From: an uncultured Chitinophaga sp.
GTDB taxonomy: Bacteria > Bacteroidota > Bacteroidia > Chitinophagales > Chitinophagaceae
Direction: 5' to 3'
Assembly (NCBI GenBank): GCA_964443345.1
Contig: CAYUCU010000003.1
Coordinates: forward strand, 5,413 to 69,412
DNA: 64,000 nt
The notes under the pieces were generated by a model. The model was not told the origin of the DNA, did no database searches, and saw only the letters and a list, made by a program, of their open reading frames with translations. This document shows, in pieces, positions 1 to 12,109 of the stretch. A program made the position numbers and the translations under genes. Position 1 is the first letter of the stretch, and each line of letters begins with the position of its first letter.

Positions 1-608
1 GGCATATCATAATAAGCAGCTTTGCTTTCATCCTGCGGAGCAGAGGGGATCATTGTTCCATATGACAGTATCTTAAGGAGGTTGGCCGCAGGTTTTGCCG
101 CAAGATGGGCCAGCTTACCCTGCAGCACTCCGTATGTATCCGTTTCATTGATGGTCATTTTTTCCTGCATGATTATTTCACCCGTATCAATTCCTCCATC
201 TACTTTATGTAATGTTACTCCGGCTTCGGCATCATTGTTCAGCAGATGACGGAGGATCGGTTGCGGGCCCCGGCATTGTGGCAATAGACCATAGTGAAAG
301 TTGATGAAGCCTTTTGCGGGCAGCTCCCATATTTCTTTGGGCAATACAAATGGAAAGGTCATCATCAGGCCAGTGTTGATACCGTATTGAGTTATGGCTG
401 TAGTTAGTTTGTCAACGTAATCATTCCGGGTTACAATGATAAGAGGTACCCCCGTATCCTGGATAAGGCTGCCAATGATCTGTTGCATTTCCTTATTCTT
501 TTTTGTTACCGCTATGGCCCCTACTTTTCCGTAAAACAAAAATTCTTTAATGCCGGGTACGGCAACAGGATTATTGCAAAGTATCAGCGTTTTTATTTCG
601 TTACTCAT
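1..608 (-). CDS. Formyltransferase family protein (Fmt/PurN-like), partial, runs off the left edge
   Basis: Manual translation from ATG at 608: MSNEIKTLILCNNP...GFINFHYGLLPQCRGPQP...GVTLHKVDGGIDTGEII. The N-x-H and D(TG) catalytic motifs of formyl_trans_N are present. Absent from the ORF track because it is truncated. Confidence 0.85.
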   Translation of the reverse strand, partial: MSNEIKTLILCNNPVAVPGIKEFLFYGKVGAIAVTKKNKEMQQIIGSLIQDTGVPLIIVTRNDYVDKLTTAITQYGINTGLMMTFPFVLPKEIWELPAKGFINFHYGLLPQCRGPQPILRHLLNNDAEAGVTLHKVDGGIDTGEIIMQEKMTINETDTYGVLQGKLAHLAAKPAANLLKILSYGTMIPSAPQDESKAAYYDM

Positions 609-614
609 AAAAAA

Positions 615-1772
615 TTATATGCAGAGATAGGTATTCCTCCAGCTGGAGCTTTCGCCGGACGGAAATAATTCATTCGTAAAATCATTCCATTCTTTATCGA
701 TATCGGGATTATCTTCTACCAGCTTTAGTTCCATTAAGTTGCTGCAGCTCAAAAGCCAGGAAGGTCCGTAAGTGTGATTGGTTCCCGCATCGAGTTTTAG
801 CCATCCTCTCGGGCTATCAAAAGAAGCATTACCCAATGCCAAAAGTATTTTGGCGGAATCAGTAGCCCCTGATTTAAATTGTTGCAACACTTCTTTCAGC
901 AACAAACCGGTATCCCAACCTAACAATGCAAAAAGATTAGCTTTTTTATTACAGCTCCTTTGATAGGAATTTGTAAAGGTGTGGTTATGCTCATTTTCCA
1001 GGAAAGAAACCCAGGGAGAGTAACCTCTTGCATTTTGTACTGCAAAAGTATCTCCGGGCAAACCGGCAAGTCCTTCATCCAGCATCATAGGAGATACATA
1101 CAGGCTAAGGTCATACTGACGCTGTAGCGGAATAACTTCACGATAAAACCTTGCAGCCATATCTCCGCTAAACAGGCACAGCAATGATCTTACTTCCGGC
1201 CGTTGTTTTAAAAACTCATCCAGCGGCGCAAGTGTAAATTCTTCTTCTTTAAAGTGTGTGACATGTGTATAGCAGGGGATCCCACCATTTTGCTGATGAC
1301 TGTTTAAAAAAGAATAGCACTGCCTGTATCCGCCATCATAATAGGAAGTAACATAGGCTGCGTGCTTATCAGCTGCTGTAGCAGCCAGTTTTCCGGAAAG
1401 CCTTGTGTGCAGGCAGAAGTTTAAAGAATGAACGATAGTTGTAGAAGCAGCATTCCAGGAGTCCGGAAAGTTAGCCCCCATATTTACCAGCATCATTATT
1501 TTATTGGTCGCGGTAAATAAGGGCTCCAGCATTTCGCCAATACGGTTTTCTGCAATGACAATAACGATAGCGGCATCATCCTGCAACAGTAATTTTTCTG
1601 CCTTTGTATATATTTCTGCTTCATCGGTCCCAAACCCGATATTATCTGTTAGCAGTTTAAACTCCTCATTTATTTTATAGTGAGCAAGGCATGCCTTTAT
1701 GCCATTCAAAATATCCAGGCCCAATGAGGGAAACAAGGTGGAGCGGGGTAATAAGACGCCTATACAAAGCAT
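615..1772 (-). CDS. ABC-type substrate-binding-fold protein (type 1 periplasmic binding protein, LivJ-like) without signal peptide
   Basis: 385 aa. Begins directly with IGVLLPRS beta-strand. C-terminal half has ALLGWDTG and FDSPRGWLKLD, typical of the branched-chain amino acid binding fold. Confidence 0.75.
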   Translation of the reverse strand: MLCIGVLLPRSTLFPSLGLDILNGIKACLAHYKINEEFKLLTDNIGFGTDEAEIYTKAEKLLLQDDAAIVIVIAENRIGEMLEPLFTATNKIMMLVNMGANFPDSWNAASTTIVHSLNFCLHTRLSGKLAATAADKHAAYVTSYYDGGYRQCYSFLNSHQQNGGIPCYTHVTHFKEEEFTLAPLDEFLKQRPEVRSLLCLFSGDMAARFYREVIPLQRQYDLSLYVSPMMLDEGLAGLPGDTFAVQNARGYSPWVSFLENEHNHTFTNSYQRSCNKKANLFALLGWDTGLLLKEVLQQFKSGATDSAKILLALGNASFDSPRGWLKLDAGTNHTYGPSWLLSCSNLMELKLVEDNPDIDKEWNDFTNELFPSGESSSWRNTYLCI

Positions 1773-1804
1773 TGTGTCAGTAGTTGGTAAAGGAGCACAA
1801 ATAT

Positions 1805-1839
1805 AATCCCCCTTCTTCTTTAACAGGAGAAGGGGGATT
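1805..1839 (-). terminator. Hairpin / probable terminator after the tail-collar genes
   Basis: 12-bp inverted repeat AATCCCCCTTCT (1805-1816) / AGAAGGGGGATT (1828-1839), 25 bp past the stop at 1865. U-tract is weak. Confidence 0.55.
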
Positions 1840-1864
1840 GATTTAATAAGATACGTTCAAAAAA

Positions 1865-2404
1865 TCAGTTTCTGCTGGGGAAGATCCCCTCAATACAAAT
1901 AATATAGTTCATCCCTAAGTAAGGGGGCATATTGCTGAAGGGTTGGTTGCCACCTGTTAACCCAATTGTTACTGTCCCTCCCAATGGGGCCATGTTTATC
2001 AGGTCATCTGCGGCGGCACTGTAAAAAGTACCGGGGCCCATGCGTCTTCCTGTTGGGTCTGATCCTAATGTGCCATCACCTGCTGCCTGTACTACTAAGG
2101 TATTGGTAACGGCATGCGTATGTGAAGGCAGATTAGTGCTTAAAAGTGTGGTGCTTGGTGTACCGGACATTTCACCCAGGTCCACACTTGGTAAACCAGG
2201 GCCCTGACCTGTACCGAGAGCTACTCTGCCCCTGAAGTCGGGTACACCAAAAGTAGTTTGACCATTTCCGCCGTAGGTAGTTCCCACAAGTGCGAAAAAG
2301 GCCGTGTTTTGAGCAATAGACATTATCTGACCCTGGCAAAAAAGCCATGATCTGGGTGCAAAATTGCCCGCAAACATGCGGATCTCTGCAATTGTTCCTT
2401 CCAT
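1865..2404 (-). CDS. Phage tail-collar domain protein (microcystin-dependent protein MdpB-like), copy 2
   Basis: Start reset to MEGTIAEIRMFAGNFAP (ATG 2404), 179 aa. Collar motifs GTTYGGNGQTTF, PDFRGR and C-terminal MPPYLGMNYIIC..GIFPSRN. Confidence 0.9.
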   Translation of the reverse strand: MEGTIAEIRMFAGNFAPRSWLFCQGQIMSIAQNTAFFALVGTTYGGNGQTTFGVPDFRGRVALGTGQGPGLPSVDLGEMSGTPSTTLLSTNLPSHTHAVTNTLVVQAAGDGTLGSDPTGRRMGPGTFYSAAADDLINMAPLGGTVTIGLTGGNQPFSNMPPYLGMNYIICIEGIFPSRN

Positions 2405-2445
2405 ATAAAATAGTTTTAAGTAATAAAAAGAATGTGTTACTGGTA

Positions 2446-2985
2446 TTAGTTTCTCGATGGGAAAATACCAAACATGCAAATGATATAATTCATACCAAGA
2501 TAAGGAGGCATGATGCTGAACGGCTGACTACCTCCTGTATTTCCAATGGCAATGGTACCTCCCAGGGGGGCCATGTTTATCAGATCGTCTGCAGCGGCGC
2601 TATAAAAAGTACCGGGGCCCAGGCGTCTTCCGCTGGGATCTGACCCTAATGTGCCATCGCCTGCTGCCTGTACTACTAAGGTATTGGTAACGGCATGCGT
2701 ATGTGAAGGCATCGTGTTTTGAGTAAGCGTTACTGTTGGTGTTCCCGCAAGCTCACCAAGAACAATGTTTGGTAAACCAGGCCCTTGTCCGGTACCTACA
2801 GCTACCCGGCTTCTGAAATCTGGTAATGCAAAAGTGGTTTGCCCGTTTCCACCATAAGTGGTGCCTAATAAAGAGAATAGAGCGGTGTTTTGCGCAATAG
2901 GTAAAATTTGCGCAGCACAGAATGCCCAGTTGCGTGGAGCAAATGTTCCGGCAAACATCCTTATTTCGGCGATGGTTCCTTCCAT
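2446..2985 (-). CDS. Phage tail-collar domain protein (MdpB-like), copy 1
   Basis: 179 aa with the same motifs. Tandem paralog offset 581 bp from copy 2. Confidence 0.9.
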   Translation of the reverse strand: MEGTIAEIRMFAGTFAPRNWAFCAAQILPIAQNTALFSLLGTTYGGNGQTTFALPDFRSRVAVGTGQGPGLPNIVLGELAGTPTVTLTQNTMPSHTHAVTNTLVVQAAGDGTLGSDPSGRRLGPGTFYSAAADDLINMAPLGGTIAIGNTGGSQPFSIMPPYLGMNYIICMFGIFPSRN

Positions 2986-3204
2986 AAAAAAGTGTTTAAA
3001 GGTTTGTGAGAATTGGTTAATGCACTGAAGTTAATATAAATCAGGTTATTGCCAATATTATTTTAGACAAAAGAAGCGGGCTGTTTTTTGCAACTACCAA
3101 CAGGCAAACTAATCAAGTCTTTTTATTTTTATCGGACAGGATCAGGAGTAAGGGGAACTACTTATTGCAAATACAGATCTTCCTGGTTTTGAAGAAAAAG
3201 CCAG

Positions 3205-3705
3205 CTAGTGTCTGAGCCAGCAGATCATTGCAGGATAGGGGCTGATATTGAGTTCACGGGCCTTGCGTTTTTCTGCCGCCATACCCACCCACTCCAGCAT
3301 TGGCACTCCAACATACCTTCCTTCCTTAAAATCATCTGCAATATTCTTTCCACCGCCATTATACCCGCTTTCATGAAATACAAAGTATGGGTCGATGTTT
3401 AAAAAATGGCAGACCGCATAACTCCAGGCTATTGCCATCATCTCTTCTGCACCCTTATCAGCACGCATGCCAATTTCATTTCCGTTCAGTGTTGCTCTTT
3501 CAGCAGCAGGTACCACCGCCAGATGAGCCGCTTCATGTACTATGTCACCGGGGTATTTGAGTTTTGCATGATCAATGATAACGGCTCCTTTTTCTATTAA
3601 AAGCCCCGGAAGAAAACATTCGGCATCGATATCCCTGAATATAACTTTAAGACCTACCTCTTCCAGGAAAAAGATGATCTTGTCGATTATAGCGCCTTCG
3701 TTCAT
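3205..3705 (-). CDS. Hypothetical protein with HExxH metal-binding motif
   Basis: 166 aa. HEAAH followed by a downstream EE (GAEEMMA). Start overlaps the stop of the upstream hydroxylase by 4 bp. Confidence 0.75.
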   Translation of the reverse strand: MNEGAIIDKIIFFLEEVGLKVIFRDIDAECFLPGLLIEKGAVIIDHAKLKYPGDIVHEAAHLAVVPAAERATLNGNEIGMRADKGAEEMMAIAWSYAVCHFLNIDPYFVFHESGYNGGGKNIADDFKEGRYVGVPMLEWVGMAAEKRKARELNISPYPAMICWLRH

Positions 3706-4412
3706 TCCTTGTCCAATTCAATTTTATCTGCCAGTTCGTTTGCTGTGGTTGTATTCATCTGCCGCAGGTGTTCCACTATCCTTGTTTTTTCTTCGGCGCT
3801 GTACTTTGGCCGTAACTCTTCTTCACTGATCTCTTTTTGCAAAGTTGCATTTTCAATAAACATTTTCTTTAGCCAATCATTCACCCGGCAATCTATCACA
3901 AGGTGTACCCGGTCTTCAGTTCCTAAATTACTTACCCGGTGTTTTAAAGACAGATTCAGGTACCAGCATTCCCCTTCCTGCATCGGAACTCTTTCATCCT
4001 GAAGATAAAATTCCACCTTGTCATTCGTTTGAACAGGAATGTGGAATCTCGCTTCTCCTTCTTCAAAGCTCATTTCATAATCGGTATGCTCTTTTATAAT
4101 GGCCCCTGCTTCCAGTTTCATCAGCCGCACAGTTGTTTTTTCACATTCAAAAAAATCAAGAACGGATTTGATATATGGACATCCATCCATCAGCGGTGTA
4201 TCCTTATAGGTGCGCATGGTATCAGAGGAGGAGTGAATGGAGTAATGATTTTCAGGGTCGCCACCAACAGACCGGAGGGGTAAAACACTCCAGCCTCCTT
4301 CGTAATGTTTTTTATTATAATGTTCTTTCCACCAACTGGTTGCCAGGCGATTTGTTTCTGCCTTTAGTTGTGCCACATCAAAGTTTCGTTTCAGTTGCAG
4401 GTATTTTATCAT
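3702..4412 (-). CDS. Aspartyl/asparaginyl beta-hydroxylase family 2OG-Fe(II) dioxygenase
   Basis: HTD (HxD) motif, distal His in LKHRVSN, Arg in DRVHLVID, and RLMKLEAGAIIKEH cupin pattern. Confidence 0.85.
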   Translation of the reverse strand: MIKYLQLKRNFDVAQLKAETNRLATSWWKEHYNKKHYEGGWSVLPLRSVGGDPENHYSIHSSSDTMRTYKDTPLMDGCPYIKSVLDFFECEKTTVRLMKLEAGAIIKEHTDYEMSFEEGEARFHIPVQTNDKVEFYLQDERVPMQEGECWYLNLSLKHRVSNLGTEDRVHLVIDCRVNDWLKKMFIENATLQKEISEEELRPKYSAEEKTRIVEHLRQMNTTTANELADKIELDKE

Positions 4413-4417
4413 CCCTT

Positions 4418-6838
4418 TTACTTATCTCCAATAATTTTTTCAATATGCAATAATTTTCCTGCTGCATCAAATCCTTCTACGATTATTTTAAACCGTTTGC
4501 TTACATCATTATTATAAAAATTCAATTTTACCATCTTTGTCTCCCCATCCGTAAAGATATCGGGATTCCAGTATAATGTTGTCCGCTTGTCTGTTTGCGG
4601 ATGACGGATATTCGTATTGCTGTAATCGGGACTGTAAAATTCTTTCCGGATTGTGTATCCGTTATATTCAACAAACTCCAGTTTATCCGGTTTCTGCTCT
4701 TCTGCAAATTTTTCTTTTGTGTAAACAGAGATAGCGCCTCCGGGATAGGTACTGCCCACGCCAACAAATCCAGCATCAAAATATTTTACCAGTGCTATAT
4801 CAGTAGCCCTTAATGTTCGTAACATAAACACATCGGTAAGCTGCTCATTTAAAAATATACCCACTGCCCATTTTTGTCCTGACATCAAGCTGAAATTCTT
4901 ACGGCTTACAAAACCGCCGCCATTAAACTCTACCTGCTGCACCCTGTTTTTGATCAGGTCAATTGCGTTTAATGATTTATCAGTAATAGGGTCATTTATA
5001 TTATCAATCACTTCTTTTGCCTGTCCTTTGAAAGCTCCGGTAGTATATTTTTCATTTACTTCATCAATTGGTTTTTTATTGCCAATAGCGTTTACGTTTA
5101 CATTCTCCAATTCTTTTACGTCATCCAGTCTTGCCTGCACCTGCTGATGACGAAGATTGACCTCATCCTTATTCTGCAATTGCGCCGGGTTTCTTATCCC
5201 GGCAGTTGTTGAAAAATTTTCCGGTATCAGTACGATCTGTTTTTCCATAGCATTTTCATCCAGCACGACCATAGCCGGTTGTGCTTTTTGATTCTTATCT
5301 GAATAGGCATAGTAGAAGTTTGTTTTACCAAAAAAAACGATTGAGTCAAGCCTGAATCGTCCGTCAGCACCGATAACAGCCTCAATGGTTTGTGAGGAGG
5401 AATCTTCTCCTTCCACTATAAAGCCTGCTTTACCAAAAGCCAATGGCTCTTTGGTCCTGGGATTTAATACGATCCCGGAAATGGAGATCAGTCCTTTATC
5501 TCTGAACCTGTTTGGCTCTACTCCATTTGAAAGTACTTTGGTCCAGTTGAAGCGGCTCCATCCATGTGTAAGCATAAGGTTATCGAGAGCCAGCTTTGTA
5601 GTATCATTCTGATTTTCAAAATACCAGGCCGGGTTATGTATGTATCCTTTCAGGTCGCTTGTCAGTAAAAAACGGGACCAGATATTATCATTGTCGCTGA
5701 ACGTTTTTCCGGGAAGATCAATTACCGCTACGGAACAACTTCTTTGTATCGCTTCCGGAAATACAATTTCCAGGATATTCTCCGCTCTCCTTTCTGTTCC
5801 TTGTTTTATAACAGCAATATCTGCTGCTCCTTTATATTCGCCATTATCTAAAAAACAGATCCGCTCTGCCAGGGGCTTTTTGTCTTTGTTAAAGACCGTA
5901 AAATGCAGAATACCGGAAGGAAGGCTATCTGTTAACAGGTGACCAATAATGGAAGGATAATCTTCAAACTCTATTTCCGTTTCAAACACTACATGATTAT
6001 TGATCTGTACTGCCAGCCACAGGTTCGCAAACTGGTCCTTATCTTTTTCTGCTCTGGAAAGCTGGAATTTTTTTCCTCCTTTTTCATCTTGTACCCGGAG
6101 ATTGATGCCTGAAGATTGAACTTCCGGCAACTGGTAGATTCGTTTTCCGGAAACTGTTTCCACTTCTGCCTGGTATTTTTTTCCAGCCTGCGGCTTAAAC
6201 TGTATTTTTCCTATTCCATCATGAAAACTTCGGAAGGAGGCTACGGTTATGCCGTCATCTGTTTTCAGAACTCCTTCTACATCCGAAGGGGTGCCCCACT
6301 GATCAACCGCTTTAAAACCAACAACAGACAATATCCCGTCCACCAGGTGGCCGCTTTCCGGAAAAAACTGAAGAGAGATGGTCGGGGATGTTGTTGCCGC
6401 AGTTGCGGAAGTGTTGGGTTTGAAAATAAATATGTTGTGGCGGTACACAAATCCTTCATCGTAATTCAGCATATGAGGGGTTATGGCCCTTATGTAATAG
6501 TTTCCCTGCGGGAGTGAATCGGGGATAGCAATATTTCCCTTAATTACGGCACCCATCACCGGGTATTTTTGGTTGCGAATAATATTCCCTTTGCTATCCG
6601 TCATTTGCAGGTAAAAATTACTGCTCAGATCACTCGGTTTCCCGTCACTATACAGGTATGCTTTAAACCAGATCGTCTCCCCGGTTACATAATATTCCTT
6701 ATCATAGTGTATATAAATTTTTTCTGAGGGATGTTCTGTCAGCAAGACGTTCAAAGCCGAATCAATCTTTTGAGCAGAGAGGATGGTGCAGGAGAGCAAT
6801 GCAAAAGCTATTGCACAATACTTAATATTACTTTTCAT
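4418..6838 (-). CDS. Secreted MG2-domain / TonB-plug-like Bacteroidota protein, paralog B
   Basis: Signal peptide, EKIYIHYDKEYYVTGETIWFKAYL, FFPESG, LDNLMLTHGW, C-terminal EFYSPDY and RTTLYWNP. Confidence 0.75.
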   Translation of the reverse strand: MKSNIKYCAIAFALLSCTILSAQKIDSALNVLLTEHPSEKIYIHYDKEYYVTGETIWFKAYLYSDGKPSDLSSNFYLQMTDSKGNIIRNQKYPVMGAVIKGNIAIPDSLPQGNYYIRAITPHMLNYDEGFVYRHNIFIFKPNTSATAATTSPTISLQFFPESGHLVDGILSVVGFKAVDQWGTPSDVEGVLKTDDGITVASFRSFHDGIGKIQFKPQAGKKYQAEVETVSGKRIYQLPEVQSSGINLRVQDEKGGKKFQLSRAEKDKDQFANLWLAVQINNHVVFETEIEFEDYPSIIGHLLTDSLPSGILHFTVFNKDKKPLAERICFLDNGEYKGAADIAVIKQGTERRAENILEIVFPEAIQRSCSVAVIDLPGKTFSDNDNIWSRFLLTSDLKGYIHNPAWYFENQNDTTKLALDNLMLTHGWSRFNWTKVLSNGVEPNRFRDKGLISISGIVLNPRTKEPLAFGKAGFIVEGEDSSSQTIEAVIGADGRFRLDSIVFFGKTNFYYAYSDKNQKAQPAMVVLDENAMEKQIVLIPENFSTTAGIRNPAQLQNKDEVNLRHQQVQARLDDVKELENVNVNAIGNKKPIDEVNEKYTTGAFKGQAKEVIDNINDPITDKSLNAIDLIKNRVQQVEFNGGGFVSRKNFSLMSGQKWAVGIFLNEQLTDVFMLRTLRATDIALVKYFDAGFVGVGSTYPGGAISVYTKEKFAEEQKPDKLEFVEYNGYTIRKEFYSPDYSNTNIRHPQTDKRTTLYWNPDIFTDGETKMVKLNFYNNDVSKRFKIIVEGFDAAGKLLHIEKIIGDK

Positions 6839-6926
6839 TTACCAGGTTATATTAGCTCAAATTAAAGAAATAGAAACAACCTGATCTGGCTGTTTATATA
6901 AACGGCAACCAGGATCATGTTTCTTA

Positions 6927-9485
6927 CTAGTTTTCAATCACCCGTTCGATATGAATTAGCTTACCATAGCTGTCGAACCCCTCTATGATCACTTTGAATT
7001 TATTGCTAACGTCATTATTAAAGAATCTCAGTCTTACGGTATTTTGATCACCCGTTGTATATACATCAGGATTCCACAAAAGAGTTGTCCGTGTATCTGC
7101 GGCAGTATGCAGGGGATCCGATATTGAATAATCCGGGCTATAGAATTCTTTTGTTATTGAATAACCCTCATACCTGATCTCATCAAGCTTCTCTATTCTT
7201 TCGTTGTTGTTTGAATGAAGCTCTTTTGTATAAATACTCAACGCCCCTCCCGGACCTCCGGTACCAGCACCTATAAAGCCCGGCTCATAAAATTTTATCA
7301 GCGCCACTTCATCCATACGTATTGTTTTTAAAAAACTGATATCTGTAAGGGATTCATTTAAAAAAACAGCGATCGGAAAGTATTCTCCCTTTTCCCTTAT
7401 TCCCAGGTCAATAAACCGCACACTGCCCGGCGCCGCACCTCCTGCTGCATCCATCGTCGAATCAAGTGTTTTTTGCTTTTGTTCATACCACTCTTCTGAG
7501 CTGGCTTTGAAAAGGCTGAAATTCTTTGTGTTGACAAAATTACCTCCCTGTTCTGCAAGCTGCTTAACGGATCTTCTGACAAAATCATATACACTTAGTG
7601 ACCGGTTATTCTCCGGTTGATTGATATTATCAAAATTCACCCTTCCCATTTGTGTGAAAACACCTTTGGTATATTTTTCATTCACCTGCTCTATTGGCCG
7701 CTTATTACTGTTGGATTCAATCACTACCGGTGCCAGGTCCTTCGTTTTAGAAAGTATAGAGTTGCCTGACCGGTACCTGTTACTTACTGCTTCACCACTA
7801 ATTGCCATATCTGTCTCTGAAGGTATATATCCGCCTTCACCCGGTACCATACCCAGGTTTGTTACAGCAGCATCTTCCTTAGCCCTGTCCAGCGTAATAT
7901 CTACTGTCTTTTCTCTTCCCTGTACTGTTTTGTATCCATAAAACAATTTTGATTGGCCCCAAAACAACAGGGAGTCAACCACAAACTGACCTTCTGATCC
8001 AACAGGTACTTCAAAACTCTGATTTACTGAATCTTCCGACTCAAGGAAAACAGAAAGCATTCCTCCACTTACTGGTTGTCCGGTCTTGCTGTCTTTCAGG
8101 CTGCCGGAAAGGGTGATCAGGTAGTTGTCTTTATATGTCGGTACCGGCAATTCATTGTCCATGATCTTCTTCCATGAAAATCTTCTCCAGCCATGAGTAA
8201 GCATCAGGTTATCCATTCCCTGCTGTGCAGAATCATTTTGCGTTAGAAAATACCAGCCGGGGTTATTAATATTGCCCCGCAAATCACTCGTCAATAACAA
8301 AGAAGATATTATATCGTCTTTTTGTCTGGCGCCTGAAATTGAGAGATCTGTTACTGAAACAGAAAGACTTCTTTGTACAGGATCAGGGAAATTAATAGCA
8401 AAAATATTTTCCTGTCGTGCACCGGTGCCCTGTTTTATCAGTTCAACGCTACCATTTGACCGATACTCTTTATTATCTACAAAGGTCAGCCGTTCTGCCA
8501 GCGGCATACCATCTGAATTGAATATGGTAAAATGTAAAATACCTGAAGGCATACTGTCTGTAAGCAAATGACCTTTTACAGAATAAAAATCATCAAATGC
8601 CACTTCGTTATCAAACACTATCTTGTTATTCTGTTGTGCCACCACTCTCAGCTGAGAGTACAGTTCTTTTTCTTTTCTGCTTCGGCTTATTACAAACAGC
8701 TTTCCTCCTTTTTCATTTTCAATCTTCAGATTAATGCCTGAAGATTGTGCTTCTGGTAATGGGTAGAAGACCGTTTGCCCCTGAAAAGCAATTGCCGCTA
8801 CATATTTTTTACCGGCCTTAGGCTTGAATTGAAATTTTCCAATGCCATCATGATAACTTTTAAAAGAAGCGATCACAACCGTATCATCTGATCTGATAAT
8901 TCCGTTTATTTCTACCGGCTTGCCCGATGCATCAGTTGCTTTAAAAGCCACTACGGCCAACAGGTCGTCCACCATGTTACCTCCTTCTGGAAAAAAGCGG
9001 ACCGATAAAGGCAAAACAGGCACAGGCCGGCTGCTTTCTTTTGCAGATGGGTTAAAAACAAATAGATTCTTTAGATACAGAAAATCGGGATTACTGTTCA
9101 GCATTGCAGGTGTTGCCGCTCTTACAATATAATTACCCTGTGGAAGTGAATCGGGAATGTTTATGCTGCCAGATACAGTAGCTCCCTTAACCGGGTACTT
9201 TTGGGTAATGATAATTTCACCTTTGCTGTCCAGCAGTTGCAGGTAAAAGTTATAGCTAAGATCACTCGGTGCATTGTTGTTGTACAAATAGGCTTTAAAC
9301 CAGGCGGTCTCGCCGGCAACATAATAGGTCTTGTCGTAATGAATGTACACTTTCTCTCCCGGAGGTTGGGAGGTAAGCCTGTTGAGCGCTGAATCGATCT
9401 TTTTTTGTGCTGCCGCACTTATTGAGAATAAAAGCAGGGTTAATGGCACAAGAATTAGCTTGTTCATAAAAGAAGCATTTAGCAA
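6927..9485 (-). CDS. Secreted MG2-domain / TonB-plug-like Bacteroidota protein, paralog A
   Basis: Same motif series (EKVYIHYDKTYY, FFPEGG, MDNLMLTHGW, RTTLLWNP). The start may be the second Met (MNKL). Confidence 0.75.
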   Translation of the reverse strand: MLNASFMNKLILVPLTLLLFSISAAAQKKIDSALNRLTSQPPGEKVYIHYDKTYYVAGETAWFKAYLYNNNAPSDLSYNFYLQLLDSKGEIIITQKYPVKGATVSGSINIPDSLPQGNYIVRAATPAMLNSNPDFLYLKNLFVFNPSAKESSRPVPVLPLSVRFFPEGGNMVDDLLAVVAFKATDASGKPVEINGIIRSDDTVVIASFKSYHDGIGKFQFKPKAGKKYVAAIAFQGQTVFYPLPEAQSSGINLKIENEKGGKLFVISRSRKEKELYSQLRVVAQQNNKIVFDNEVAFDDFYSVKGHLLTDSMPSGILHFTIFNSDGMPLAERLTFVDNKEYRSNGSVELIKQGTGARQENIFAINFPDPVQRSLSVSVTDLSISGARQKDDIISSLLLTSDLRGNINNPGWYFLTQNDSAQQGMDNLMLTHGWRRFSWKKIMDNELPVPTYKDNYLITLSGSLKDSKTGQPVSGGMLSVFLESEDSVNQSFEVPVGSEGQFVVDSLLFWGQSKLFYGYKTVQGREKTVDITLDRAKEDAAVTNLGMVPGEGGYIPSETDMAISGEAVSNRYRSGNSILSKTKDLAPVVIESNSNKRPIEQVNEKYTKGVFTQMGRVNFDNINQPENNRSLSVYDFVRRSVKQLAEQGGNFVNTKNFSLFKASSEEWYEQKQKTLDSTMDAAGGAAPGSVRFIDLGIREKGEYFPIAVFLNESLTDISFLKTIRMDEVALIKFYEPGFIGAGTGGPGGALSIYTKELHSNNNERIEKLDEIRYEGYSITKEFYSPDYSISDPLHTAADTRTTLLWNPDVYTTGDQNTVRLRFFNNDVSNKFKVIIEGFDSYGKLIHIERVIEN

Positions 9486-9654
9486 AAGAAAATTAACAGC
9501 CTGCCAGTATGTTCAAATTTACTTAATAATTACCTACAAAAACCCTTTTTACCCCGGTTATTCCTTCGCAAAAAATACTATTTTAAGACAGGTCCCCGCC
9601 TTTCATCATAAGCGCTATCTCATCGCCGGGGTTTCATTAAATTGCATCCTCTTT

Positions 9655-11694
9655 ATGCCATTCAAACTTCAAGCACCCTTTCCTCCCGCCGGTGATCAGC
9701 CGGATGCCATCCGCCAATTGACGGAAGGGCTGGAGAATGATGAAAAATACCAGACACTGCTGGGGGTGACCGGTAGTGGCAAAACATTTACCATTGCCAA
9801 TGTGATTCAAAATGTACAGCGGCCTACATTAGTGCTCACACACAATAAAACACTGGTGGCCCAGCTGTATGGAGAATTCCGGCAGTTCTTCCCGGATAAT
9901 GCCGTGGAGTATTTTGTTTCGTATTATGATTACTATCAGCCGGAAGCATATATGCCCGTGAGTGATGTATATATTGAAAAAGACCTGAGCATTAATGATG
10001 AGCTGGATAAACTTCGCCTGAGGGCCACCTCCAGCTTACTAAGCGGGCGCCGTGATATTATCGTGGTGGCATCCGTGAGCTGCATTTACGGTATGGGTAA
10101 TCCTACCGACTATGAGAACGGTATCATCCGTATCACTAAAGGACAAACCATTTCCCGCCAGGCCTTTCTTCATTCACTGGTCAATTCTTTATACAACCGT
10201 ACAACTATTGAATTCAACCGGGGCAGCTTTCGGGTAAAAGGGGATACGGTGGACATCAACCTCCCGTATGTGGACTATGGCTACCGTATTACTTTTTTTG
10301 GTGATGAAATAGAAGAGATAGAAAGTATTGATGTGGTGAACAGCAAACGGATCGCAAAGATGGAAGATGCAGCCATTTTCCCGGCTAACCTTTATGTAGC
10401 TCCCAAAGACATCCTGCAACAGGTATTATATGAAATACAGGATGAAGTAGCTGCACAGGCGGACTATTTTAAACGGGAAGGAAAATACATTGAAGCACAG
10501 CGGCTGACAGAACGGGTGAACTATGATGTGGAAATGATACGGGAACTGGGCTATTGTAATGGCATTGAAAACTATTCCCGCTTTTTTGACAGAAGGCGGC
10601 CGGGCACACGGCCTTTCTGTTTACTGGATTATTTCCCCAAAGATTATTTAACGGTGATCGACGAAAGCCATCAAACTATTCCGCAGGTAAGTGGTATGTA
10701 TGGTGGTGACCGGAGCCGGAAATTGATCCTCGTTGATTATGGGTTTCGTTTGCCATCCGCACTGGACAACCGGCCGTTGAATTTTCATGAGTTTGAATCA
10801 ATGACCAATCAAACGATTTTCGTTTCTGCCACACCCGATGATTATGAGCTGGAAAAATGCGGGGGCATTGTGGTGGAACAGGTGGTACGGCCTACCGGTT
10901 TGTTAGACCCACCCATCGAGATCCGGCCCAGTGTGAACCAGATTGATGACCTGCTGGAAGAAATAGATAAAAGAATAACCAAAGGAGACAGGGTGCTGGT
11001 AACCACACTTACCAAACGTATGGCCGAAGAAATGGATAAATACCTGCACCGCATTAATATCAAATCCAAATACATTCACAGTGAGGTGGACACATTGGAA
11101 CGGGTGGAAATTCTTCGTGAGTTACGATTAGGAGTGATTGATGTATTAGTAGGAGTGAACCTGCTGCGGGAAGGATTGGACCTGCCGGAAGTATCCTTAG
11201 TTGCTATCCTCGATGCAGACAAAGAAGGCTTTTTGCGAAATGAAAAATCGCTGACACAAACAGCCGGCCGTGCTGCCCGAAATGCAGATGGCCTGGTTAT
11301 CTTTTATGCAGACAAGATGACTGAGAGCATGCAAAAGACCATAGATGAAACAACCCGGCGCCGGGAAAAACAGGTGGCCTGGAATATTAAATATGGCATT
11401 ACCCCAGCCACCATCATTAAATCCACCAAAGATGTATTTGCACAAACATCGGTATTGGATATAAAAGGCTTTGATGAAAAGAATCCATATGCCATTGCCA
11501 ACGAACAGGGCATTGTAACCCTGGCAGCAGAAGACCAGGAAGAATATAAAACCATTCCCCAGGTGGAAAAGGCCCTTTCTAAAATAAAAAAGGAGATGGA
11601 GAAAGCGGCAAGGGACCTCGACTTTATGGAAGCGGCAAGGCTGAGAGATGAGATGTTTATCCTGCAGAAACAGCTGGAGGAAATGAAGAAATAA
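9655..11694 (+). CDS. uvrB: Excinuclease ABC subunit B
   Basis: Start reset to MPFKLQAPF (ATG 9655). Walker A GVTGSGKT, YYDYYQPEAY beta-hairpin, DESH, C-terminal UVR domain (LDFMEAARLRD). Confidence 0.98.
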   Translation: MPFKLQAPFPPAGDQPDAIRQLTEGLENDEKYQTLLGVTGSGKTFTIANVIQNVQRPTLVLTHNKTLVAQLYGEFRQFFPDNAVEYFVSYYDYYQPEAYMPVSDVYIEKDLSINDELDKLRLRATSSLLSGRRDIIVVASVSCIYGMGNPTDYENGIIRITKGQTISRQAFLHSLVNSLYNRTTIEFNRGSFRVKGDTVDINLPYVDYGYRITFFGDEIEEIESIDVVNSKRIAKMEDAAIFPANLYVAPKDILQQVLYEIQDEVAAQADYFKREGKYIEAQRLTERVNYDVEMIRELGYCNGIENYSRFFDRRRPGTRPFCLLDYFPKDYLTVIDESHQTIPQVSGMYGGDRSRKLILVDYGFRLPSALDNRPLNFHEFESMTNQTIFVSATPDDYELEKCGGIVVEQVVRPTGLLDPPIEIRPSVNQIDDLLEEIDKRITKGDRVLVTTLTKRMAEEMDKYLHRINIKSKYIHSEVDTLERVEILRELRLGVIDVLVGVNLLREGLDLPEVSLVAILDADKEGFLRNEKSLTQTAGRAARNADGLVIFYADKMTESMQKTIDETTRRREKQVAWNIKYGITPATIIKSTKDVFAQTSVLDIKGFDEKNPYAIANEQGIVTLAAEDQEEYKTIPQVEKALSKIKKEMEKAARDLDFMEAARLRDEMFILQKQLEEMKK

Positions 11695-11860
11695 GTGCGG
11701 AATCCCTCTTTGTCGTAATTCTACGATTCCCGGTAAAGTATTTGTTCCTGACTTTTTCAAATAGACTCATCTGGCCTTGCAGGGCGGAACAGACGGTTAT
11801 ATCTTAGCTGTGAAAACCGAGAGTAATCCAATATTTGTAAAACCACAAAATCCAGTAAGT

Positions 11861-12109
11861 ATGAAAAGACGTGTCCGTAAAATCGCAAACTTCTTTGCGT
11901 TCAACCTGCTGTTCTTCGCTTTATACCTGAACTTTATTCACAAAGACAAAACAGCTATTATAATTCCATCTGCCCAGCAAACAACTGAAGCCTTTAGTGG
12001 TACGGTATTGGTGGATAATAATGGACAGGCCGACAAAAAAGAAGCAACTGTGGTAGCTACTCAGCCTGCTGCTGAAAAAAGCGCCCCATTAAGATTGTCT
12101 ATTAACTAA
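11861..12109 (+). CDS. Small membrane-anchored hypothetical protein
   Basis: ATG 11861, MKRRVRKIANFFAFNLLFFALYLNF (basic N-terminus plus one TM helix), followed by a terminator. Confidence 0.65.
   Translation: MKRRVRKIANFFAFNLLFFALYLNFIHKDKTAIIIPSAQQTTEAFSGTVLVDNNGQADKKEATVVATQPAAEKSAPLRLSIN

Follow-up and report, generated by a model that had tools for sequence, protein, structure and literature searches.

The Collar domain (PF07484) is found in the fibre proteins gp12 and gp37 of phage T4, in the tail fibre of the virophage DSLV2 and in the small tail-collar proteins (COG4675/MdpB), which bacterial genomes encode very commonly. In DSLV2 three PF07484 tail proteins of about 180 residues each are encoded in succession and purify together as a heterotrimeric fibre with 1:1:1 stoichiometry, measuring about 16 nm; residues 120-145 form a flexible patch on its head, and the fibre attaches to cells and to lipopolysaccharide (LPS) (PMC12724248). 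The present work concerns a cassette at positions 1-4412 of a 64,000-nucleotide stretch of contig CAYUCU010000003.1 from an uncultured Chitinophaga sp., hereafter called the window, in which two collar genes, A and B, stand together with genes for a hydroxylase of the 2-oxoglutarate (2OG) oxygenase superfamily, a protein with an HExxH motif, a protein with a periplasmic-binding-protein (PBP) fold and a formyltransferase. An earlier note on this DNA had listed these six genes on one strand, and all six are present there, on the minus strand (Table 1). The cassette genes are a real, co-conserved unit without phage context, and the reading that we tentatively prefer is that this unit makes a heterotrimeric receptor-binding-type fibre, which would be tailored in the cytoplasm and then exported.

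The cassette collars resemble T4 gp12 and gp37 in the Collar domain, in the position of an H-x-H motif and in the combination of a conserved base with a variable distal part. The two histidines, H95 and H97, are invariant in the collar alignments and presumably correspond to the metal-binding H-x-H of the gp12 and gp37 fibre tips. In contrast to the T4 proteins, the cassette collars are only 179 residues long, have no shaft and are encoded as two or three paralogous chains instead of one, and their genes are chromosomal, syntenic and flanked by enzyme genes, with no virion, baseplate or chaperone genes. The hypervariable head of the cassette collars (residues 98-150) matches the DSLV2 head patch in position, whereas the virophage proteins belong to a virion and have no tailoring enzymes and the cassette genes are cellular, with a heterotrimer that is still a putative one. 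Other bacterial COG4675/MdpB triplets, which are named 'microcystin-dependent protein', 'tail fiber protein' or 'phage tail protein' in databases, likewise lack phage genes; they carry Sec signals or are joined to GNAT and sulfotransferase genes, whereas the cassette collars have an MEGT N-terminus, no signal peptide, and the PBP-fold protein and the formyltransferase as partners.

A profile of the PBP-fold protein retrieved 69 loci from species-representative genomes, nearly all of them from Chitinophagaceae. The cassette proteins were mapped on these loci and all open reading frames (ORFs) were clustered; the set recurs in about 65 genomes, and so the co-location is far beyond chance. Components were counted in the 36 loci that have 8 kb or more of sequence on each side, with the HExxH and hydroxylase genes looked for within 10 kb. 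Collar genes are present in all 36 loci (two copies in 23, three in 11, one in 1 and four in 1), the Fmt-like formyltransferase in 35, a protein with a twin-arginine translocation (Tat) signal in 34, the PF05118 hydroxylase in 31, the HExxH gene in 30 and a PKHD oxygenase in 25; a gene for a protein secreted by the type IX secretion system (T9SS) lies just downstream of the formyltransferase gene in 31. The PBP-fold gene lies beside the collar genes in every locus and beside the Fmt-like gene in 35 of the 36. The collars are the only non-enzymatic constant of the cassette and the only constant partners of the PBP-fold and formyltransferase pair. Gene order varies by clade while the set is kept, with the collar genes before or after this pair and the hydroxylase gene co-directional or divergent. 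When the HExxH protein instead of the PBP-fold protein serves as the anchor, the cassette is found again in Taibaiella lutea as well as in further contigs, and the cultured carriers are Ferruginibacter yonginensis CECT 8289, which is among the 69 loci, and Taibaiella lutea. The earlier note had staked its proposal on the genes staying together in other genomes, and across the 36 well-flanked genomes they do. In some long-read metagenome-assembled genomes single cassette genes are split (the formyltransferase gene in locus L037, the PBP-fold gene in L040 and L071, the HExxH gene in L073), through either assembly frameshifts or cassette decay.

An overlapping, identical public contig (L001) extends the left flank of the window. 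The full formyltransferase measures 312 residues there, and its gene is followed by those for a 211-residue twin-arginine-signal protein (MQRRNFIS...) and a 225-residue PKHD-type 2OG oxygenase, and then by a convergent YceI gene; the second oxygenase bears out the suggestion of the earlier note that further enzymes might lie on this side. On the far upstream side UvrB is encoded beyond a pair of MG2-type genes (Table 1), and the UvrB/YceI synteny is common to other genomes. Sheath, tube, baseplate, capsid, terminase, integrase and lysis genes are absent from the clustered neighbours of the 65 loci, and no phage structural genes occur in the Pfam lists of loci L154, L155 and L161. A prophage, a tailocin and a contractile injection system were rejected on these grounds, with neither virion nor tail genes in the loci and with UvrB and YceI as flanks, so that the absence of phage context claimed earlier stands. 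Chance placement of a decayed tail-fibre remnant of a prophage next to metabolic genes would agree with the phage character of PF07484 and with the nearest cultured-phage relatives of the collars, which are full-length 'minor tail proteins' of at most 38% identity. However, about 65 genomes carry this set, flanked by the conserved UvrB and YceI genes, with intact frames and two orthologous groups of collars and without any virion, integrase or lysis gene, so that a remnant has next to no probability and is excluded by the co-conservation data. A known anti-phage defence system was also rejected: the PADLOC models gave no match for the collars, the HExxH protein, the PBP-fold protein or the Fmt-like protein, their only significant match being a generic 2OG-oxygenase model to the oxygenase outside the window (E 9e-17), with marginal matches to PDC-S19 and PglX (E about 0.004).

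The PF07484 matches of both collars exceed the Pfam cut-off, and the T4 gp12 structures 1OCY, 1PDI and 5IV5 are matched at E 0.002. Collars A and B are 80% identical and arose by tandem duplication, with a spacing of 581 bp. The mechanical ORF of collar B spans 1865-2479 with a TTG start, and the conserved start (MEGT...) lies at 2404. The N-terminus MEGT[IL][AG]EIRMFAG is common to all 147 collars in the loci and leaves no space for a signal peptide. A and B are old orthologous groups: over its N- and C-terminal parts, collar A shows identities of 0.80 and 0.86 to collar A of other genomes, compared with 0.69 and 0.72 to collar B of its own genome, and the B group is marked by E instead of F eight residues before the C-terminus. 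In the head (residues 98-150) the relation is reversed: the identity is 0.35-0.37 between genomes and 0.78 between paralogues in one genome. In the window pair, nucleotides 271-405 show 87-93% DNA identity, compared with 51-76% elsewhere in the genes, and third-codon identity in the head is 0.68, compared with about 0.35 elsewhere, indicating gene conversion. The simplest reading of this pattern is a heteromeric fibre, the chains of which present one common, rapidly diversifying head, and an intertwined trimer or heterotrimer is suggested by the virophage precedent together with the matched heads. Hypervariability combined with matching by gene conversion suggests that the head serves in recognition and is under diversifying selection; adhesion, kin or prey recognition and phage-receptor interplay are candidate functions.

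Lysine accounts for 0.6% of residues in the 147 cassette collars, compared with 6.1% in the neighbouring enzymes, and is missing altogether from 61 of them, including both collars of the window. As a cassette-specific trait, lysine depletion was rejected, since unrelated collars are also poor in lysine (1.4%) and the cassette collars are only more extreme. Tyr128 was likewise discarded as evidence: it is present in 51 of 52 collars from loci with a sulfotransferase and in 74 of 95 collars elsewhere, a difference confounded by phylogeny.

Signals around the collar genes were scored over 64 regions 5' of the first collar gene, with expectations taken from shuffles. A TAnnTTTA box lies about 41-50 nucleotides before the first collar ATG in many loci, and within the interval from -75 to -25 it occurs in 36 of 64 regions (11.9 expected). 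A leader motif, AACC..TAA, is found 8-40 nucleotides upstream of this ATG in 27 of 64 loci (1.2 expected). Since Bacteroidota, to our knowledge, do not use a classical Shine-Dalgarno sequence, the leader motif could be a translational or regulatory element. The motif also has a fuller form, AACC(A/T)TTAAAC, the window copy of which is at 2996-3004. The region after the last collar gene folds with z < -2 in 44 of 50 loci (median z -4.0), and the hairpin stem is conserved in sequence across distant loci as ATCCC(T/C)CTTC...GAAGAGGGAT, often with a T-run next to it. The window hairpin at 1811-1836 may thus be placed, from its position and sequence, as a terminator or attenuator ahead of the enzyme genes. 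Its sequence conservation exceeds the need of a plain terminator. With promoter motifs of their own and a terminal hairpin, the collar genes are predicted to be a separate, highly expressed unit, a layout expected for a structural product followed by its catalytic helpers. A scan of positions 1-12000 against Rfam gave chance-level matches only, and every public sequencing run that contains the window sequence is a DNA metagenome of a biofilter or of drinking water, RNA runs not being among them.

The hydroxylase matches PF05118 with 69.3 bits against a cut-off of 22.6, and the HxD...H iron-triad residues are seen in KEHTD and KHRV. Its best solved relatives are L-proline cis-4-hydroxylase (4P7W, E 1e-10) and proline 3-hydroxylase (1E5R), and there is a weak match to TIGR04531, 'nonproteinogenic amino acid hydroxylase'. 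The name Asp/Asn beta-hydroxylase given to it in the earlier note is right at the level of the family, whereas the nearest solved relatives act on free L-proline and are not the Asp/Asn hydroxylase of epidermal-growth-factor-like domains. The formyltransferase has both the Formyl_trans_N and the Formyl_trans_C domain (PF00551/PF02911), and its Asn/His and Asp residues align with the catalytic residues of Escherichia coli Fmt, in agreement with the earlier description of an intact catalytic site. Residues 1-75, which in Fmt include the tRNA-acceptor loop region, cannot be aligned with E. coli Fmt, and the TIGR00460 fmt equivalog model gives 89 bits against a cut-off of 201.5, as measured on the 202-residue fragment within the window; a housekeeping methionyl-tRNA formyltransferase was rejected for these two reasons. 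The enzyme aligns over its full length with ArnA, and its relatives include sugar N-formyltransferases.

The PBP-fold protein is encoded by the longest possible ORF, which begins at the first beta-strand of the fold, so that no signal peptide is present. More than 300 homologues are known, all of about 385 residues, and the best match in the Protein Data Bank (PDB) is 4EVQ, a solute-binding protein; the fold is a type-I PBP fold of the Leu/Ile/Val-binding family. The C-terminus, WRNTYLCI, is invariant or nearly so throughout the family and has a penultimate cysteine, which is odd for a binding-protein fold. Its gene and the formyltransferase gene are often translationally coupled, with overlapping stop and start codons in many loci. 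A function as the solute-binding protein of an ABC transporter was rejected, because no signal peptide is present and no permease or ATPase genes are found in the loci; AmiC is an example of a cytoplasmic PBP-fold protein. It is conceivable that the PBP-fold and Fmt-like proteins are assembly or quality-control factors of the fibre and that the other enzymes are unrelated neighbours. Chaperone genes follow phage tail-fibre genes, the pair adjoins the collar genes in every locus in a chaperone-like manner, and a collar monomer modelled with AlphaFold2 (AF2) does not fold alone. Such a role is nevertheless improbable, because the catalytic Asn/His/Asp residues of the formyltransferase are conserved and the other enzymes are co-conserved and fusion-linked across rearrangements.

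A carbamoyltransferase of the NodU/CmcH type is encoded between the oxygenases in 10 of the 36 loci, and in 13 of the 36 the same slot holds genes for a sulfotransferase, an adenosine-phosphosulfate (APS) kinase and a small nucleotidyltransferase. The two sets are never together in one locus, and the clade of the window has neither. This exchange of carbamoyl for sulfate is the swap pattern of tailoring enzymes that act on one scaffold. PhyH dioxygenases and a PRMT5-like methyltransferase are also among the accessory genes of relatives. The GNAT and sulfotransferase genes predicted in the earlier note occur in related clusters, and no further genes of the cassette type (sulfotransferase, carbamoyltransferase, T9SS module or Tat proteins) are found in the rest of the 64-kb window.

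The HExxH protein has no match in Pfam, NCBIfam or PADLOC, and a sequence search of the PDB was empty; its 1324 homologues are all 'hypothetical'. H57, E58, H61, E87, E88 and H111 are invariant. In an AF2 model with a predicted local distance difference test (pLDDT) score of 84, a helix and a three-stranded sheet are followed by the HExxH helix and then by an EE helix, so that H57/E58/H61 and E87/E88 lie on consecutive helices, a layout that we take to resemble small zincins. A full-library search with a hidden Markov model (HMM) found 942 relatives, many of which are C-terminal domains of longer proteins. The fusion partners are oxygenases of the Asp/Asn-hydroxylase family, carbamoyltransferases, a PRMT5-like methyltransferase and a sulfotransferase of the cassette type, and a tandem HExxH pair also occurs. 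One carbamoyltransferase-HExxH fusion lies within a complete one-strand cassette together with the PKHD oxygenase, the hydroxylase, the PBP-fold protein, the formyltransferase and three collars. Since it occurs both alone and as a fusion with four classes of tailoring enzyme, the HExxH domain links all of these enzymes to a single substrate, and judged from its fusions it may act as a recruitment module. In its behaviour the protein is closer to a partner domain shared among tailoring enzymes than to a stand-alone processing protease.

The main rival to a tailored fibre is a small-molecule pathway, which we consider unlikely but a serious contender. The oxygenases would hydroxylate a free amino acid or metabolite, the PBP-fold protein would hold the product and the formyltransferase would N-formylate it, with carbamoyl, sulfate and methyl groups added in relatives, and the collar trimer would bind, carry, sense, deliver or target the product. 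The free-proline hydroxylases and TIGR04531 as relatives of the hydroxylase, a Leu/Ile/Val-type fold that binds small molecules, a formyltransferase without the tRNA-loop region that can be aligned along its full length with ArnA, a sugar formyltransferase, the carbamoyl/sulfate swapping typical of natural-product clusters and collars that offer no lysine to formylate all fit such a pathway. However, an enzyme that builds a scaffold, be it a non-ribosomal peptide synthetase, a polyketide synthase, a ligase, a cyclase or a glycosyltransferase, is absent from the approximately 65 loci, and it is the collar genes that are the sole constant partners of the PBP-fold and formyltransferase pair. A PRMT5-like protein methyltransferase in the accessory set and a domain fused to four enzyme classes are also better suited to a macromolecular substrate.

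The relationship of the formyltransferase to ArnA and to sugar N-formyltransferases also bears on a second possibility, in which a glycan or lipid of the cell surface is the target of the enzymes, giving for example an N-formylated amino sugar or a hydroxylated lipid, and the collar trimer is a lectin for this self-structure. PF05118 includes lipid hydroxylases and T4 collar-type fibres bind LPS. Binding of LPS by the collar-type virophage fibre (PMC12724248) points the same way. Modification of the envelope is nevertheless a poor candidate: no conserved nucleotide-sugar aminotransferase, dehydratase, glycosyltransferase, flippase or acyltransferase gene is found in the loci, the hydroxylase is soluble and short, and the HExxH fusions and the PRMT5-like enzyme are left unexplained.

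The Tat-signal protein, of which there is one per locus almost throughout, is of either of two types, c5 in 26 loci and p211, the kind of the window, in 8, never both. The c5 protein has a degenerate 5'-nucleotidase-like fold. The protein encoded after the formyltransferase has a T9SS C-terminal domain and an N-terminal module, GDIAFTGY..., and the same module heads giant SprB-repeat proteins elsewhere. In sister genomes its gene, coding for about 430 residues, lies between the formyltransferase and Tat-signal genes, as seen by comparing L001 2440-2621 with L009, L011, L021, L032 and L155. Tat-signal and T9SS-secreted proteins in the conserved set and Sec signals on related triplets make the surface or secreted destination proposed in the earlier note plausible. 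In an unrelated, low-GC locus (L076 1148-3456) a collar triplet, each chain of which carries a Sec signal (MKKQIILLC...SQ), is followed by an N-terminal module of the T9SS-partner type. A Sec-signal triplet with the same module suggests that the family acts outside the cytoplasm.

Gene linkage, fusions, intact catalytic motifs, the lack of signal peptides, concerted evolution of the heads and the conserved hairpin are the observations on which the fibre reading is built. In this reading the two collar genes, three in many relatives, would code for the structural product, and the chains probably co-assemble into a heterotrimer with a conserved base and a fast-evolving head matched by gene conversion. 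Since the chains carry no export signal, the collars would fold in the cytoplasm, and clade-specific, cofactor-dependent enzymes would act on them there. Signal peptides are lacking on the collars, the PBP-fold protein and the enzymes alike, which supports tailoring in the cytoplasm, and the cofactors of these enzyme families (2-oxoglutarate, formyl-tetrahydrofolate, carbamoyl phosphate, 3'-phosphoadenosine-5'-phosphosulfate (PAPS) and S-adenosylmethionine) are cytoplasmic metabolites. The tailoring set of the organism of the window would comprise the Asp/Asn-hydroxylase-family oxygenase, the PKHD-type oxygenase encoded outside the window and the pair of PBP-fold protein and formyltransferase, to which relatives would add an O-carbamoyltransferase or a sulfotransferase with its own PAPS supply, PhyH dioxygenases and the PRMT5-like methyltransferase. 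The most likely role of the HExxH domain, as the common partner of the enzymes, is to dock them on the fibre, and cleavage of the fibre is a further possibility. The finished fibre would be exported folded, with the Tat-signal protein of degenerate enzyme fold as the candidate carrier, and in most relatives its probable partner is the SprB-type surface protein secreted by the T9SS, where the fibre would serve adhesion or recognition as a variable binding tip.

Several observations weigh against a tailored, exported fibre. The T9SS partner gene is lost from the locus of the window and from its two closest relatives, a recent loss, and the Tat-signal protein was not found at the Taibaiella locus. 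The hydroxylase gene is missing from 5 and the HExxH gene from 6 of the well-flanked loci, and so both are accessory. The proline hydroxylases as the only solved relatives of the hydroxylase at sequence level and a PBP fold, which normally binds small molecules, speak for a small substrate. The window collars, being free of lysine, could be formylated only at the N-terminal amine. The AF2 monomer model of collar A is unusable (pLDDT 44.5), and so the collar fold and the trimer are deduced from sequence. A Foldseek search of the PDB with the HExxH model gave no significant match, solved peptidases included; the best match, to the ImmA/IrrE-like domain of a Mycobacterium tuberculosis regulator, has an E value of 0.56 and is not significant.

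The features of the window are listed in Table 1. The stop codon of the 806-residue protein gene lies 5 nucleotides ahead of the hydroxylase start, and so the two genes are probably co-transcribed. The MG2-type pair at 4418-9485 is part of the operon in the clade of the window, other clades being without it, and the MG2-type upstream gene is syntenic in loci L009, L011, L017, L032 and L043.

Table 1. Features of the cassette and its upstream neighbours in the window.
Feature	Position	Strand	Remarks
Secreted protein of about 850 residues with a weak MG2 (alpha-2-macroglobulin-like) domain	6927..9485	-	Signal-peptide-like N-terminus; MG2 E 4e-5, under the Pfam cut-off
Paralogue of the 6927..9485 protein, 806 residues	4418..6838	-	Stop 5 nt ahead of hydroxylase start
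Fe(II)/2-oxoglutarate oxygenase, Asp/Asn beta-hydroxylase family, 236 residues	3702..4412	-	PF05118 E 4e-19
HExxH protein, 166 residues (HEAAH)	3205..3705	-	Predicted small zincin-like domain; 4-nt overlap with hydroxylase stop
Terminator-like hairpin and T-run	3200..3221	-	Overlaps 3' end of HExxH gene
Collar-gene promoter/leader region	2986..3204	-	Leader motif AACCTTTAA at 2996-3004
Collar A, 179 residues	2446..2985	-	PF07484 Collar E 1e-25
Head segment of collar A, residues 98-150	2536..2694	-	Hypervariable between genomes, homogenised with collar B
Collar B, 179 residues	1865..2404	-	PF07484 Collar E 1e-26; second orthologous group
Head segment of collar B, residues 98-150	1955..2113	-	Gene-converted with collar A
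G+C-rich stem-loop	1811..1836	-	Directly 3' of last collar gene, conserved
Type-I PBP-fold protein, 385 residues, cytoplasmic	615..1772	-	Peripla_BP_6 E 8e-17
Formyltransferase (Fmt/ArnA superfamily), N-terminal 202 residues	1..608	-	Truncated by window edge

Tandem collar triplets with neither the PBP-fold and formyltransferase pair nor phage genes are widespread in other lineages, and one such unrelated triplet is flanked by genes for a GNAT protein and two sulfotransferases. Triplets accompanied by GNAT and sulfotransferase genes are found in high-GC lineages that are unrelated to the carriers of the cassette. Group-transfer enzymes beside collar triplets are thus a recurrent theme beyond the cassette family. 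A high-GC locus (L157 1-21593) combines a collar triplet and a GNAT gene with lasso-peptide-type genes and a methyltransferase-HExxH fusion; the lasso-type set consists of three PqqD genes, Asn_synthase, Transglut_core3, an ABC exporter, a ScmC/HprK-like gene, sulfotransferases and JmjC. Small DUF6916 proteins recur in L157 and L158. In another high-GC locus, filed as viral in IMG/VR (L077 489-8516), three proteins with collagen repeats and CBM96 are followed by six tandem collars.

No paper was found in the literature on the cassette or on collar proteins joined to a formyltransferase, a hydroxylase or a sulfotransferase. For the small tail-collar genes, the cassette is a testable handle on their cellular role, consisting of the PBP-fold and formyltransferase pair, the swap-in tailoring enzymes, the shared HExxH domain, the export partners and two cultured carriers, and the carrier family, Chitinophagaceae, is abundant in soil and water. 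If the collars are the substrate, they would be folded bacterial proteins that are heavily modified by enzymes, which is rare outside the ribosomally synthesised and post-translationally modified peptides (RiPPs), and the cassette would show bacterial domestication of phage receptor-binding modules and would provide a new recruitment domain for enzyme engineering.

Among enzyme-bearing systems, RiPP clusters share with the cassette structural genes with their own promoter and hairpin, interchangeable tailoring enzymes and a small domain that is free or fused. As in RiPP clusters with the Asp hydroxylase CinX or the tyrosine sulfotransferase RaxST, the cassettes have a PF05118 hydroxylase and a sulfotransferase with a dedicated PAPS supply. 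In contrast to RiPPs, the putative substrate is a folded protein of 179 residues with no leader peptide, the shared domain has an HExxH metal site, and a PqqD-type RiPP recognition element (RRE), a cyclase and a dedicated exporter are lacking; a precursor with a leader, an RRE or a class-defining enzyme was found neither in the window cassette nor in the 65 related loci, the sole lasso-peptide-like set being the one near the related cluster of L157. The formyltransferase has both domains and the catalytic Asn/His/Asp in common with Fmt, ArnA and the sugar N-formyltransferases and differs from them in its pairing with a PBP-fold protein, and the latter differs from ABC solute-binding proteins in having neither a signal peptide nor permease and ATPase genes nearby. 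Extended to all its parts, the fibre reading would describe an undescribed class of ribosomally made, enzymatically tailored fibre, which receives hydroxyl groups and then carbamoyl or sulfate, as well as methyl and formyl groups, with the HExxH docking domain playing the part of an RRE, and which is exported folded with a Tat carrier and mounted on T9SS-secreted SprB-type proteins as a fast-evolving recognition tip; in this full form it is a doubtful proposition, about as unlikely as the small-molecule pathway. The parts of the cassette come from known superfamilies, and their assembly matches no described system. The cassette belongs with the known, uncharacterised cellular tail-collar (COG4675) gene clusters, and there is a real chance that it makes a new class of tailored protein product.

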